Source: Escherichia coli (GTDB lineage: Bacteria; Pseudomonadota; Gammaproteobacteria; Enterobacterales; Enterobacteriaceae). From it: a DNA stretch of 64,000 nucleotides. Position 1 is the stretch's first letter; each line of letters begins with the position of its first letter. The stretch lies in the NCBI RefSeq assembly GCF_046105845.1, contig NZ_CP151004.1; one strand, written 5' to 3'. The position numbers and the translations under genes were made by a program. The notes beneath the pieces are model-generated. The model ran no database searches, was not told where the DNA came from, and saw only the letters and a list, made by a program, of their open reading frames with translations. Below, one piece after another: positions 25,401 through 49,475 of the stretch.

Positions 25401-25900
25401 CAGTGTTGCCCGGTCAGCCCCGGCGCGATGGCTTCTGCCTGTTCAGGCTCGCCGGTCACCTGCAGCAGGCGGACTTTACGCCGCCAGAACGGACCGTAGC
25501 GGTCGCGCAGGAAGGCGGCGAGTTCCACCATTGCCGGATGACGGCTGTCGGCTTTCTTTGTCGTCACCGCCCGATAGTCATCCCCGGCGGCAAGCTGTCT
25601 GCGGAGTTCAAAGTTCTGTACGGCAGCGTGGCGGTTCAGCAGATGATAAACCCCCATGATAATCAAAAAGACCACGCCTGCGGCAATCACGCCCGCCATC
25701 CAGTACATCTGCTGCGGGCTGCCCGGCTCGACGCCCAGCAATGCCGGTTTACGGTGAATGAGCGTACAAAGTGCAACCACGACAGCCACGGTCATGACGA
25801 TTACTGGCCCTGAGAGCGAACGGGGCCGGAGACGGCTTAATCCCGGAACCACTATGATGCCTCCTGCGGTAAAACGAACGGCGACACCACGGTCGCCCAT
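22463..25900 (-). CDS. tssM: T6SS membrane-complex protein TssM (IcmF-like)
   Basis: Over 1100 aa with N-terminal transmembrane helices; ORF-track N-terminus (to 26113) is over-extended; real start near 25900 or 25795 (uncertain). Confidence 0.85.
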   Translation of the reverse strand: MGDRGVAVRFTAGGIIVVPGLSRLRPRSLSGPVIVMTVAVVVALCTLIHRKPALLGVEPGSPQQMYWMAGVIAAGVVFLIIMGVYHLLNRHAAVQNFELRRQLAAGDDYRAVTTKKADSRHPAMVELAAFLRDRYGPFWRRKVRLLQVTGEPEQAEAIAPGLTGQHWLEGDHTVLIYGGRPSAEPDVTLLTALKKLRRSRPLDGIIWALTEEQSRQTAQLDKGWRELINGSKRLGFQAPLYLWQVCDNGDYQTGRPLQSVGCLLPERCPPEQLAVMLEAQTLPLTEQGMSQLLTDNRHDFLLRLAHTLAERGIAHWQTVLKPLLAGGAFSSLRLRGLMFSPPLTAVPEAAPHAWLPSPVWAGVTGDNARGRTVGFPWLRAALISGICMLAIWGAGMTTSFFANRALVQETSIQTARALDTRLPLSEQLVALHTLQGELERLQYRIREGAPWYQRFGLERNQQLLAAAFPGYAQAANRLVRDVAVDHLQQQLNAFVALPPNSPQRTATGEQRYKQLKALLMTSRPEKADAAFFSTTLMADGLRYENIPEGVRQSVLPSLLTFWMANLPEHPQWKTSPPPELTGAVRKILLRQIGVRNAENTLYQNVLQQVSRNYADMTLADMTGDTLTESLFSTEQTVPGMFTRQAWEGQVREAIEQVVTARREEIDWVLSDRQQDTSADISPDTLRNRLTSRYFTDFAGSWLAFLNSIRWKKEDSLSGILDQLTLMADARQSPLIALTDTLAWQAAAGRENRGLSDSLAKSAQELFNGKEKTPQQSREDDVPVGPLDKTFAPLLRLLGDKAGGGGGDTQLSLQTYLTRVTRVRLKLQQVTNAPDPQEMTQQLAQTVLQGKTVDLTDTRDYGRLIAASLGEEWSGFGQALFVRPVEQSWRQVLTPAADSLNRQWQRAIVSHWNQDFAGRYPFKASQNDASLPLLAQYLRDDGRINQFIAANLSGVLKREGRYWVADAMNTQGLTVNPDFIRALNRLRDVADTAFASGDAGIHFELRAKPARDVMKTHLVIDGQELEYFNQKERWQRFNWPDEQWQPGASLSWTSTQAMERILADYRGSWSLIRLLEQAQVTPVDSSTFKVVWKAQDGLPLNYLLRVEQGKGPMALLELKNFRLPGQVFLTGRSMKDAEEYGEDADE

Positions 25901-27066
25901 GAATAATGTCCACCCTGAACGCCGCTGAGCGTCAGTTGGGGTTGTTGTAAATGCACTGACGCCAGCGCCGCAGCGGCGACGGACAGCCACGGCGCAGCCG
26001 GGCCGGAGCGCCCCAGAAAGGCATCCAGCTCGTACATCAGGGCTTCCTGAGCAAACGGCTGGTTCAGGCTTAACAACGCGGCACGCTGTTCCCTGTCCAG
26101 TTCGGCAGTCCACATGCCGGATATTGCATCTGGCTGCACCGGCATCCAGTCCAGCGCCTGTGCAATGCCTGACACCATCATCTCTGTATCAGTGATACGT
26201 TCAGGACGATGCAGCAGGGCCAGCGGCGTCAGCGCGGTTTGCGTCAACCGGTTTGCCAGCAACAGCGCGGTGGCGGATTCTGCCGTCCGTTCCGGGTTCT
26301 TCGGTTCAAGTCGTACGGAAATCACCAGCAGTACGGCCTTTTCCTGAATAAAGTTGTCCAGCCAGTCGTCCACGGCGGCCAGCCCCGGCTCCGGGGCAGA
26401 AAACAGACGGGCTTCCGGGAGTCCGGCTTTTTGCCATTCGTCCTGCCAGATAGCCATAACCGTTGACTCAGAAAGCGACGTACTGGTTTCTAAAAGCACG
26501 TTGATATGAAAATCATCGGGTAGCAGCGTCAGTTGCAGCCTGATATCGCTGAACAGACGGGAAAAAACTTCGGATAGACGTCCGGTAACCGGTTTATTGG
26601 TTAATACAGGGATGACACTGCGACGCACAGTATCTTCTCCGCGCAAATCAGCGTAAGTATTCAACACCTGCTGACGCGCCAGAAATGCTGTTGTAGTTTC
26701 TGCAACGGAATCACCATTCAGCGCGGTTTGTACGGAAAAACTGAGTATCTGCAACGCCCGTCGTCCCCGTCGCGTTTCCTGCAAAATCACCTCTTCCCGG
26801 CGCTTATTCCAGGCATCAGCCCGAATGTACTGCGTGATAAAAAACAGCCAGCGAACTGAAGCAACCAGCGACCAGATAAAGGCAGGCACACCACAGGCCA
26901 GCCCCCAGAAATACGGGCCGTTTTTTGCCAGTTCATCGCTGGCAAATAATGAAGTCAGGGCCACACCTGTGGACAGCATCAGTAATAAGGCTGACAGCCA
27001 TTTAATGCGGGCTGGCGGTGTGGGATAGGGTTCTGCGTCGGGAATGGCATGGAGTCGAACAGGCAT
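25852..27066 (-). CDS. Hypothetical inner-membrane protein (two N-terminal transmembrane helices) upstream of tssM
   Basis: 404 aa; hydrophobic segments LSALLLMLSTGVALTSLFA and GLACGVPAFIWSLVASVRWLFFI; GC-rich like the T6SS core; no family recognised. Confidence 0.5.
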   Translation of the reverse strand: MPVRLHAIPDAEPYPTPPARIKWLSALLLMLSTGVALTSLFASDELAKNGPYFWGLACGVPAFIWSLVASVRWLFFITQYIRADAWNKRREEVILQETRRGRRALQILSFSVQTALNGDSVAETTTAFLARQQVLNTYADLRGEDTVRRSVIPVLTNKPVTGRLSEVFSRLFSDIRLQLTLLPDDFHINVLLETSTSLSESTVMAIWQDEWQKAGLPEARLFSAPEPGLAAVDDWLDNFIQEKAVLLVISVRLEPKNPERTAESATALLLANRLTQTALTPLALLHRPERITDTEMMVSGIAQALDWMPVQPDAISGMWTAELDREQRAALLSLNQPFAQEALMYELDAFLGRSGPAAPWLSVAAAALASVHLQQPQLTLSGVQGGHYSWATVVSPFVLPQEAS

Positions 27067-27126: not shown

Positions 27127-27504
27127 TTACTCTGATACATTTATGGTATATATTTTGCCAAACCGTCCTCTGCCACCACCACCTATGGAGAATCCTCCGA
27201 TTTCAATGACTATCGCCCCTTTTACAACAGGGATACCCTGAACAATAAGGCAACTATTTTGGTCTGGCTCAAAAACATCAATAGTCAAACCCGAATTCTC
27301 AGGCCTGAAATCTTTCAATGGAAAAAAAGGTACAGGCCCAACTCCTCCTGAAATCTCGATTTTTGCATAGTAACTCTGACCTAATTTTGCATCAGGCAAG
27401 GAGTCTGGGGAAACAGTAGTTTTTGGGATGATTAGCATATGTAAACATCCAGTTAGTGATATTGATAATGAACATATGAGTAAAAATTGAATTGTCTTTT
27501 TCAT
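27127..27504 (-). CDS. Small lipoprotein (candidate immunity protein)
   Basis: 125 aa; MKKTIQFLLICSLSISLTGC lipobox; AT-rich; in the cargo block downstream of the second vgrG. Confidence 0.5.
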   Translation of the reverse strand: MKKTIQFLLICSLSISLTGCLHMLIIPKTTVSPDSLPDAKLGQSYYAKIEISGGVGPVPFFPLKDFRPENSGLTIDVFEPDQNSCLIVQGIPVVKGAIVIEIGGFSIGGGGRGRFGKIYTINVSE

Positions 27505-28397
27505 GACTTGTTAGTGTCAATGTCAATATAAACCTGATTGGATCTAATGTTAAATTTATCTTCAAGTTTTTCACCCGACATATCAAGATTTAGCAGTAAT
27601 TTTTTAATTCCATCGTCGTTATTATCACCTAAGCATGAATTATCTGGTTCGAGGTGGCTATTATCTTTATTAAAGAAGCATATGTATTTCTGGCTCAATA
27701 GATTAAACATTTTTTTATAGATGCGCTGCCGAACAAGCCATTGTTCATTGACAAACGGATATTCAAGAGTACCTACCTTGTAACGCCGTAAGCCCGGCGG
27801 AAAAGCATATAAAGATTTATTCAAATAAATACTGACAACATACTTTTCCCCGGATTTAATCTCGAACCAGTTTCCAGAATCAGGATCGTCATCATAGCCA
27901 TTACAAAATGAACCCAGAAAATCCAGTCTTGAGTTATCAGTAATAATAAGAAAGTCTTGTTTACATGATGAGGTATATGCCATGTCTTGTTTATTTTTTT
28001 TAAAAAAAGTCAGAAAAATATCAGGAAGATAGAATGAATGGTGGCTTTTATTTTCAAATTCTATAGTCATTACAACTTCTTTTTTAGATTTTTGCTCTGC
28101 AAATAAACGGATAAACATGTTGATTTCAGACTGTAGCTTTTTATTTTCTTTATCATCCAATAAGTATCCTGGTGAGAGGAAAACATACTTCTCATCATCA
28201 CGTAATGGATAAAAAAAAGGTGAGTCAGTTACTATTCTGCTTTCCCCATAACCATAACCATACTTCTTAAAAACCAGTAAGTCATCGGCAATTGAATTAA
28301 GTGAAAACAGCAATAAGAAACAAAAAATTGCATAATTAATAAATTTACTAAATGTATGCAAAATAACCTCCTTCAATAAAAAATCAAAAAAAAACAC
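27501..28397 (-). CDS. Hypothetical exported protein (candidate immunity protein)
   Basis: 298 aa; N-terminal hydrophobic signal-like segment (YAIFCFLLLFSLNSIADD); very AT-rich; 4-bp overlap with the downstream lipoprotein gene. Confidence 0.45.
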   Translation of the reverse strand: MFFFDFLLKEVILHTFSKFINYAIFCFLLLFSLNSIADDLLVFKKYGYGYGESRIVTDSPFFYPLRDDEKYVFLSPGYLLDDKENKKLQSEINMFIRLFAEQKSKKEVVMTIEFENKSHHSFYLPDIFLTFFKKNKQDMAYTSSCKQDFLIITDNSRLDFLGSFCNGYDDDPDSGNWFEIKSGEKYVVSIYLNKSLYAFPPGLRRYKVGTLEYPFVNEQWLVRQRIYKKMFNLLSQKYICFFNKDNSHLEPDNSCLGDNNDDGIKKLLLNLDMSGEKLEDKFNIRSNQVYIDIDTNKS

Positions 28398-28448
28398 AAG
28401 TTACATTTTACTCTAAATATAACTTGATTGATTAACAATTAAAGAAGA

Positions 28449-29252
28449 TTACTCGGGTGGTGGTGGGGGATTATTATCAACTATAATTTTTAAATCCTTA
28501 CTCATGTCCTCTTCCACAGATTTTTTTATATCTATTAAAATCTCTTCATTCAGAGCTATCTGAAAATATTTCTCAACATTATAAGCACTTCTGAAAACGG
28601 CCTGATTGTGTTGACTAACCATTGTTTTTGCAGCAGCCAAATGAGCATCACCACTCATAAATGCCGGTTTCCCTTGCGCATTCATATCATGTGTGCTCAT
28701 TCCACCACCAATACCACCTTTGCCGGTCCTACAAAAATGAGACATTTCATGACACAGCGTTGAAACCTGAGAATCAACACCACATAATGGTTTGTCCTTA
28801 AACTTTCCAGCTATAAAAATATGATAATCTTTATCAATAAATTCATTAACTCTGGCAGTGAAATTCCCACATACCGTATTATTAATATAATAGCAAGTTA
28901 ACACTCCATCCTTATCATATCTGAACATTTGATTATGAATTGTTTTAATCCTCTTGATACCATCCTGCATTATTAACAATGCAGTCTGTTTAGTTTCATC
29001 ATCATCTCCTATCAATTCATCACCTTTGGTGCCAAATATTTTATAAAACTCGCTTATCTCTTTTTCCTTCCCCCCCTTATTCCAACCCTCAAGAGAATGT
29101 TCGCGAATCTCAAGAACTTTTTCTTGGGCTTTGTGTGCTCGTAATATCATCTCTTTAAATTTATTAGTAATAACAACTTCAGCGACACAAATCTCTACAG
29201 TAGCTGGAGCTGGAGCTGGCTTGCCGTTTGATATTTTATTTCCCATATACAT
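28449..29252 (-). CDS. Candidate T6SS effector with HExxH metallopeptidase-like motif
   Basis: 267 aa; LCHEMSHF motif; Pro/Ala-rich ends; 7 bp downstream of vgrG copy B; AT-rich. Confidence 0.5.
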   Translation of the reverse strand: MYMGNKISNGKPAPAPATVEICVAEVVITNKFKEMILRAHKAQEKVLEIREHSLEGWNKGGKEKEISEFYKIFGTKGDELIGDDDETKQTALLIMQDGIKRIKTIHNQMFRYDKDGVLTCYYINNTVCGNFTARVNEFIDKDYHIFIAGKFKDKPLCGVDSQVSTLCHEMSHFCRTGKGGIGGGMSTHDMNAQGKPAFMSGDAHLAAAKTMVSQHNQAVFRSAYNVEKYFQIALNEEILIDIKKSVEEDMSKDLKIIVDNNPPPPPE

Positions 29253-29258
29253 TCCCTG

Positions 29259-49398: not shown

Positions 49399-49475
49399 TG
49401 GCGGAACGGACGGGACTCGAACCCGCGACCCCCTGCGTGACAGGCAGGTATTCTAACCGACTGAACTACCGCTCC
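49399..49475 (-). tRNA. aspV: tRNA-Asp (GUC)
   Basis: Reverse complement reads GGAGCGGTAGTTCAGTCGGTTAGAATACCTGCCTGTCACGCAGGGGGTCGCGGGTTCGAGTCCCGTCCGTTCCGCCA. Confidence 0.97.

Follow-up and report, generated by a model that had tools for sequence, protein, structure and literature searches.

The cluster for a type VI secretion system (T6SS) carried by a 64,000-nucleotide stretch of the Escherichia coli contig NZ_CP151004.1 (hereafter the window, meaning the whole stretch that was analysed) contains a spike gene, vgrG-B, which is directly followed by three AT-rich open reading frames (ORFs), and these, together with the end of the spike gene, are the subject of the present work. The first encodes a protein of 267 amino acids (aa), which we conclude to be an aspzincin-fold (M35) zinc metallopeptidase; the second encodes an exported protein of 286 aa, a candidate for the cognate periplasmic immunity protein of this effector, and the third a 125-aa lipoprotein, probably not cognate to it. 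A first-pass annotation of the same DNA had listed three ORFs after vgrG-B, and these are indeed present, on the minus strand, at the coordinates given below.

Locus layout and base composition

29259..31760, minus strand: vgrG-B, 833-aa spike with gp27/gp5 core, T6SS_Vgr, DUF2345 and C-terminal TTR-like domain
29262..29459, minus strand: TTR-like C-terminal domain of VgrG-B, last 66 residues, proposed effector docking site
28449..29252, minus strand: effector gene, 267-aa aspzincin (M35-fold) zinc metallopeptidase without signal peptide
28686..28751, minus strand: active-site segment HEMSHFCRTGKGGIGGGMSTHD of the effector, containing H168, E169 and H172 as well as D189, proposed as third zinc ligand
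27501..28361, minus strand: partner gene (immunity candidate), 286 aa from a TTG; the longest ORF extends to 28397 (298 aa)
27127..27504, minus strand: lipoprotein gene, 125 aa, lipobox LTG/C, probably not cognate to the M35 effector
25852..27066, minus strand: accessory gene, 404 aa, conserved in this T6SS type, lower edge of the variable region

The identity of vgrG-B is given by TIGR01646 (E 6.5e-135) and by the Pfam families Phage_GPD, Phage_base_V, T6SS_Vgr and DUF2345. A gap of 6 nucleotides separates it from the effector gene and, at the other end of the group, the ATG of the lipoprotein gene overlaps the stop codon of the partner gene (ATGA); beyond it the ORF list continues, still on the minus strand, with the 404-aa gene and then tssM. 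The GC content is 0.28-0.37 between 27200 and 29200, compared with about 0.60 in the flanking core genes, which confirms the AT-richness inside a GC-rich core that the first-pass annotation had taken as the hallmark of swapped-in cargo. The swap itself is likewise supported, and the exchanged stretch reaches into the 3' end of vgrG-B, where it takes in the last ~66 codons (29262-29459). All three ORFs (267, 286/298 and 125 aa) have conserved homologues, and the occurrence of long ORFs in such AT-rich DNA is not due to chance. A promoter and terminator scan returned sites no more numerous than those of shuffled sequence.

The effector as an M35 metallopeptidase

The 267-aa protein carries a single copy of the HEMSH (HExxH) motif, at 28737-28751, and has Pro/Ala-rich ends (PAPAPA at the N-terminus, PPPPP at the C-terminus), both features having been read correctly in the first-pass annotation. 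Its family had not been recognised there, and the module was considered possibly uncharacterised, a view which could not be maintained: the protein has the aspzincin (M35) fold, RefSeq and UniProt already list relatives as "peptidase M35", and a 35%-identical homologue from E. coli is reported to be toxic in the periplasm (PMC7904677). In fact, the profile and structure search against zincin families that had been proposed as a check led to the M35 enzymes AsaP1 and GfMEP and to the Pfam family Aspzincin_M35.

Taken as a single sequence, the protein matched, among PDB sequences, a peptidyl-Lys metalloendopeptidase (E 4e-4) and AsaP1 (E 0.014), while the profile of its family matched AsaP1 at E 2.5e-7 and the Grifola enzyme GfMEP at E 6.7e-6, the alignment spanning the strand-helix segment ...TG.DS...TL.HE.SHF. 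Across the 29 aligned family members, Pfam Aspzincin_M35 was matched at E<=0.1 by 19 and at E<=1e-3 by five, with a best value of 3.5e-9; nothing useful for the 267-aa protein was obtained from NCBIfam, PADLOC or PHROGs. A structural model built from 6 sequences was unusable (predicted local distance difference test, pLDDT, 47.8), and a usable one was reached after the alignment had been deepened by a search of representatives. This model shows the aspzincin fold, its structural neighbours being M35 enzymes only, and AsaP1 is among the three closest solved structures.

The same alignment of 29 sequences shows H168, E169 and H172 to be invariant (29/29), as is the surrounding ...G.DS...LCHE.SHF, with AYNIERYF as a further hallmark near the end of the protein. 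D189, which lies in a GGMxTxD (GGMGT.D) segment, is kept in at least 90% of the members and aligns with the Asp of the GTDD of AsaP1. With the aspzincins of MEROPS family M35, such as the Grifola peptidyl-Lys metalloendopeptidase (1G12), Aeromonas AsaP1 (2X3A) and Aspergillus deuterolysin (1EB6), the effector has in common the HExxH helix that follows ...TG.DS...TL, and D189 is a candidate for the Asp which there acts as third zinc ligand. AsaP1 and deuterolysin are secreted pre-pro-enzymes, whereas the window effector has neither signal peptide nor propeptide: its N-terminus, as read from the sequence, is hydrophilic (MYMGNKISNGKPAPAPA...) with no hydrophobic leader, and the M35 fold fills most of the 267 aa. 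T6SS delivery and pairing with an immunity protein would further separate it from the classical enzymes. An extra C-terminal helix, a strand and the poly-Pro tail characterize the subgroup of the window and are absent from most relatives. The proposal of the first-pass annotation that this is a VgrG-linked metallopeptidase toxin gains support from the M35 profile, the invariant HExxH and the synteny with vgrG, and the assignment gives a defined enzyme family to a T6SS cargo that had been "hypothetical".

The family is small. A word-indexed search found 5 clusters and an exhaustive profile search 52 representatives at E<=1e-3, nearly all of them of 200-310 aa or fragments; all the named members belong to the Enterobacteriaceae (E. 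coli, Citrobacter, Salmonella, Buttiauxella, Phytobacter, Franconibacter and Trabulsiella).

As regards the two ends of the effector gene, the N-terminal (Pro-Ala) repeat (29205-29225 of the window) varies from 2 to 5 units among E. coli copies 92-100% identical, and the C-terminal poly-Pro tract (28452-28470) shows frameshift variants (PPHHPSNLL, PPTTQVIFFNC) among the same copies. Both ends are slippage-prone simple sequence.

The partner protein as immunity candidate

The first-pass annotation had described the middle protein as exported and 298 aa long. Export was supported, while the length has to be corrected, the likely start being a TTG (28361) with a GGAGG 5 nucleotides before it, which gives 286 aa; this is also the length of the 99%-identical homologue P0006, an E. 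fergusonii hypothetical protein. The signal peptide, of the Sec type, ends ...NSIA/DD (the slash marking the cleavage site), and all intact copies of the partner have a hydrophobic leader followed by a small-residue site (SIA/DD, YAS/EE, VQA/NE). Moreover, several cysteines are conserved across the homologues. No match to the partner family was found in Pfam, NCBIfam or PDB sequences, profile searches included, and PADLOC and PHROGs were equally uninformative.

The loci examined were those of C. amalonaticus, C. koseri, Buttiauxella izardii, Phytobacter ursingii, Franconibacter helveticus and a metagenome contig and, within E. coli, those of enteroaggregative E. coli (EAEC) 042, a second island with two modules, BCE049 and strain 82.0311. 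The order VgrG, M35 effector, partner-family protein was found in 12 loci from 6 genera, with four alleles in E. coli and further ones in two Citrobacter species, Buttiauxella, Phytobacter, Franconibacter and the metagenome contig. A partner homologue lies directly downstream of the effector in 12/12 of these loci (hidden Markov model E values from 1e-28 to 1e-135). Since an exported protein always accompanies a leaderless toxin, the 286-aa protein is a candidate for the cognate periplasmic immunity protein of the M35 effector.

A protein which is always adjacent to the effector, and larger than many immunity proteins, could in principle also be a loading chaperone or adaptor. This is extremely unlikely: because it is exported, the partner cannot well be a cytoplasmic loading chaperone, the Sec-type signal peptide of every homologue taking it to a compartment other than that of the cytoplasmic effector and VgrG. 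It matches no adaptor family in Pfam or NCBIfam, and in some loci, such as the metagenome contig L013, the gene is found as a tandem duplicate, as happens with immunity genes.

Divergence across alleles is fastest in the partner (26-45% identity), slower in the toxin (32-53%) and slowest in the TTR domain of the spike (38-79%), an order which fits diversifying selection on recognition. No correlation was found between the divergence of the effector and that of the TTR domain.

Some irregular copies were also observed. In E. coli BCE049 (L019 13063-13834) and C. koseri (L005 6807-7641) the partner gene is split into two ORFs with the M35 gene intact, which raises the possibility of self-intoxication or of an inactive system. 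In Franconibacter helveticus (L012 2392-3430) a second M35 effector fragment (71 aa, with LCHEMS) and a second immunity-gene fragment lie downstream of the intact module; they are remnants of an earlier or duplicated cassette.

The proposed spike adaptor domain and the limits of the cassette

VgrG-B ends in a stretch of ~58-66 residues (SGEYNLQFHFVDDYGIPYANTKYIAYFAEGTQKEGVTDDNGNTENF...) that shares 48-67% identity with the same region of the other VgrGs which carry M35 cargo; in three of these (two from Citrobacter, one from Buttiauxella) the spike body is of another subtype and only ~25% identical to that of VgrG-B. On the other hand, this domain is 28% identical to that of VgrG-A, the other spike of the window, though the bodies are 97% identical, and 34% identical to that of the Salmonella VgrG carrying TseH, though the bodies are 91% identical. 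The TTR domain tracks the cargo rather than the spike body.

In this context, the C-terminal ~110 residues of VgrG-B align (E 1e-8) with residues 720-831 of EAEC VgrG1 in 6SJL, the entry of the VgrG1-Tle1 complex (PMC10715212), and PMC6899460 cites the VgrG1 TTR domain as a requirement for delivering the cargo. The two spikes have the same architecture and the cargo gene directly downstream, the EAEC cargo being a phospholipase and that of the window a peptidase. From the way in which the TTR domain varies with the cargo, the M35 effector is proposed to dock on it.

At the DNA level, the bodies of other vgrG genes are homologous as far as 29460, and the Salmonella core is homologous again from 27101. 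Since the lipoprotein gene (27127-27504) is also found in Salmonella, the M35-specific segment ends at 27505, and comprises, from 27505 to 29459, the TTR domain, the effector gene and the immunity gene. The unit of exchange is thereby defined as a spike adaptor domain plus a toxin and its immunity gene.

The 125-aa lipoprotein

The first-pass annotation had proposed two immunity candidates, of which the 286/298-aa protein stands, with its 12/12 loci, and the lipoprotein does not, as it occurs independently of the effector. A single metallopeptidase toxin with two periplasmic immunity proteins, acting jointly or redundantly, would agree with the fact that all three genes are AT-rich and adjacent, with the overlap between the lipoprotein ATG and the upstream stop codon, and with the finding that the complete E. 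coli genomes with the lipoprotein are only the five which have this effector allele. Nevertheless, we consider this arrangement quite unlikely. The lipoprotein is missing from all the other M35 loci examined, including the different M35 allele which occupies the same slot in strain 82.0311, and an intact copy is present in Salmonella, at the equivalent place immediately preceding the 404-aa gene, where the cargo consists of TseH and two small exported proteins and there is no M35 gene (this copy is annotated with a late start, the leader and lipobox lying in frame). Furthermore, in two metagenome contigs (L009 4709-6396, L010 2175-3862) the homologue follows an unrelated 430-aa protein, with overlapping stop and start codons, and this pair adjoins an insertion sequence (IS) transposase outside any T6SS cluster. 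Therefore, lacking co-occurrence across the M35 loci and being present elsewhere without an M35 gene, the lipoprotein is not a general M35 partner; most likely its gene, a resident or an orphan one, provides immunity to some other effector and stayed in the slot when the cargo was swapped.

Homologues of the lipoprotein are few (the window, R12-type E. coli, Salmonella and the two metagenome contigs), and none was found in a scan of species-representative genomes. It has no Pfam match, its profile matched no PDB sequence, and NCBIfam, PADLOC and PHROGs gave nothing useful. The 430-aa protein, in turn, found no match in Pfam, NCBIfam or PDB; by eye, it shows a papain/C39-like Cys...His pattern (LCGPAAF ... 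NHWIVWEG). From its sequence context, it is possible that the 430-aa protein and the lipoprotein homologue form a toxin-immunity pair. A role of the lipoprotein as immunity to TseH-like toxins was considered and rejected, the 430-aa neighbour having no similarity to the Salmonella TseH.

Distribution and alleles

Among 5426 complete E. coli genomes, the three-gene segment is present, at ~97.6% identity, in only 5 (R12, MP1, LI60C3, SCU-111 and FDAARGOS_1373), in all of which the three genes are annotated as hypothetical. By comparison, the EAEC 042-type allele with its partner gene is present in 641/5426. For the neighbouring core gene, the complete genome that comes closest is that of E. coli 82.0311 (NZ_CP122454.1; L020 11472-13265), whose vgrG-B slot holds an effector of 262 aa and a partner of 306 aa, each 27% identical to its counterpart in the window, together with its own TTR variant and no lipoprotein. 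One E. coli T6SS slot can therefore accommodate alleles that lie far apart within a single toxin type. The point is relevant to competition between gut strains, since MP1, a mouse commensal, has the window allele, as do isolates from rats and humans. One relative of the effector in the AlphaFold Database (AFDB) lies within a protein of Cronobacter named VgrG.

Comparison with known systems

The closest point of comparison is the VgrG-linked "peptidase M35" of E. coli itself. In EAEC 042 the relative EC042_RS08390 (WP_000342577.1), named "peptidase M35" in RefSeq, lies in an island of PAAR, VgrG, M35 and hypothetical protein genes, and is 35% identical to the window effector over almost its full length (E 2e-40). 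Its counterpart in BCE049, FQU84_13640, is the same gene, 35.6% identical to the window effector (E 3e-38), and corresponds to the "M35-peptidase" of module 5 in PMC7904677. The two systems belong to one family and share the order of a VgrG with the same TTR class, the effector and an exported homologue of the partner (~273 aa in the EAEC 042-type module). They differ in frequency (641/5426 against 5/5426) and in location, an orphan PAAR-vgrG island as opposed to a main T6SS cluster; the window allele has, in addition, the extra C-terminal helix and strand, the poly-Pro tail and a lipoprotein gene after the partner. Identity between the two alleles is down to 35% for the effectors and 28% for the immunity proteins, so that cross-protection would be unlikely. 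The window module is thus a rare E. coli allele of a family already annotated and partly tested, and not a new kind of system.

FQU84_13640 is reported to have lowered the survival of E. coli when provided with a PelB leader and not when it was kept in the cytoplasm (PMC7904677), and the authors of that paper predicted a cell-wall target. An M35-fold enzyme acting on the peptide stems or cross-links of peptidoglycan, and not on proteins, would be in line with this prediction and with the gene encoding PG_binding_1 and Peptidase_M23 domains which adjoins the module in C. koseri. We regard it as unlikely, given that Pfam showed no peptidoglycan-binding domain in the protein or its relatives. Characterised M35 enzymes, moreover, are endopeptidases which act on proteins.

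The fish-lethal AsaP1, whose PDB entries name it a toxic extracellular endopeptidase, suggests another function, that of an anti-host virulence protease delivered by the T6SS into eukaryotic cells, with the exported partner serving some other purpose; the T6SSs of BCE049 are reported to have contributed to mouse virulence (PMC7904677). Such a function is very improbable. An exported partner inherited strictly together with the effector is what marks an antibacterial effector-immunity pair, and the same paper reports both the toxicity of the homologue in the E. coli periplasm and that deleting the M35-bearing effector locus did not reduce mouse virulence.

Another HExxH zinc peptidase delivered by a VgrG with DUF2345 and TTR domains is the C-terminal domain of P. 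aeruginosa VgrG2b, which is thermolysin-like, with Glu as the extra ligand, and annotated as DUF4157 (PMC6899460). Its toxicity, confined to the periplasm, its dependence on HExxH and its envelope-targeted immunity protein PA0261 have been described (PMC6899460; PMC10673891), and this domain and its stand-alone relatives are loosely called "M35" in PMC10673891. VgrG2b differs from the window system in its peptidase family, in having the effector fused to the spike instead of encoded as a separate cargo, and in an immunity protein unrelated in size and sequence. The VgrG2b/DUF4157 family was tried for the window effector and rejected: neither the protein nor its 29 relatives matched DUF4157, there was no match to VgrG2b in PDB, and the structural neighbours were M35 enzymes only.

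A literature search for aspzincin, lysine-specific metallo-endopeptidase or "peptidase M35" in connection with T6SS or VgrG yielded nothing beyond PMC7904677, PMC6899460, PMC10673891 and PMC10715212, and no paper was found on the substrate, structure or immunity mechanism of true M35-type T6SS effectors.

Proposed mechanism

The reading we favour, with a probability of roughly three in four, is that 27505-29459 is an exchangeable T6SS cassette composed of a TTR domain, a 267-aa M35 endopeptidase and a Sec-exported 286-aa immunity protein, in which the peptidase is loaded through the TTR domain and acts in the periplasm, the lipoprotein not being a specific partner. The leaderless peptidase would be made in the cytoplasm and, in the manner of Tle1 on EAEC VgrG1, attach non-covalently to the VgrG-B trimer at its TTR domain. 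It would then be fired into neighbouring Gram-negative cells, where it would cleave a periplasmic or envelope target, either a protein or a peptide, with the zinc held by H168, H172 and D189 and with E169 as the presumed general base. Sister cells would be shielded by the periplasmic 286-aa protein, most likely through direct binding to the peptidase, and the lipoprotein would be co-transcribed and not act as a specific partner of the M35 toxin.

The fold, the conservation of the metal-binding motif, the effector-immunity synteny and the association of TTR domain and cargo were all observed in this analysis. Several points weigh against the proposed cassette. Toxicity of the window allele, and its rescue by the 286-aa protein, are argued by analogy with the periplasm-only toxicity of a 35%-identical homologue, for which no immunity test is reported in the available text of PMC7904677. 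The window protein itself matches Pfam Aspzincin_M35 (PF14521) at E 0.057, below significance. Because the Tyr-Gly of the canonical GTxDxxYG is not conserved in the effector family and the His-to-Asp loop is ~8 residues longer than in AsaP1, two differences from the classical aspzincins, the catalytic geometry may differ from that of canonical M35 enzymes. The correlation between effector and immunity divergence is weak (Mantel r 0.36, p 0.017, from noisy local identities). Finally, the start of the lipoprotein gene within the immunity-gene stop, and its restriction among complete E. coli genomes to those with this effector allele (5/5426), make it conceivable that the lipoprotein serves this one allele as a helper or as a second immunity protein.

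A wider joint reading is put forward tentatively, at less than even odds. The partner, of ~260 residues, would be an undescribed class of aspzincin inhibitor, and the VgrG-TTR/M35/immunity cassettes would make up a rapidly diversifying recognition system of the Enterobacteriaceae, with alleles 27-53% identical in the same slot. Each effector would have a particular envelope protein as its substrate, its specificity having shifted from the Lys preference of classical M35 enzymes, and the lipoprotein would be a retained orphan immunity protein against a lost papain-like toxin.

Surrounding genes and neighbouring cargo

The 404-aa gene at the lower edge of the variable region occurs in 995/5426 E. 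coli genomes and also in Salmonella, being named "KPHS_23130 family T6SS system protein" in some RefSeq records; its product found no match in Pfam or NCBIfam and, by eye, its N-terminus has a membrane-spanning look. Outside the T6SS cluster the flank is E. coli chromosome (mltD, yafC, yafD, dkgB), and a tRNA-Asp gene (49399-49475) is located at the island border. The cluster of the window (13823-45045) adjoins this tRNA-Asp gene, IS and integrase remnants being annotated in matching genomes, while in E. coli R12 (L001) a cluster 94-96% identical, with a single vgrG, lies beside three tRNA-Met genes. The same T6SS is therefore found at two tRNA-linked sites.

The other spike gene, vgrG-A (33296-35785), has a cargo of its own (31805-33302, minus strand), composed of a 296-aa protein with a C-terminal glycine-zipper-like tail (GGWGGAVAGAKIGTVIGASLGVTTGPGAVATGIIGGIVFGAAGYFG) and a 205-aa protein. 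The family searches gave for this cargo a weak PHROG match on the Gly-rich stretch and none other. It is possible that this cargo is a membrane-disrupting effector with its immunity gene. E. coli 82.0311 has the same 296-aa protein without any difference, and a version of the 205-aa protein with 98% identity.

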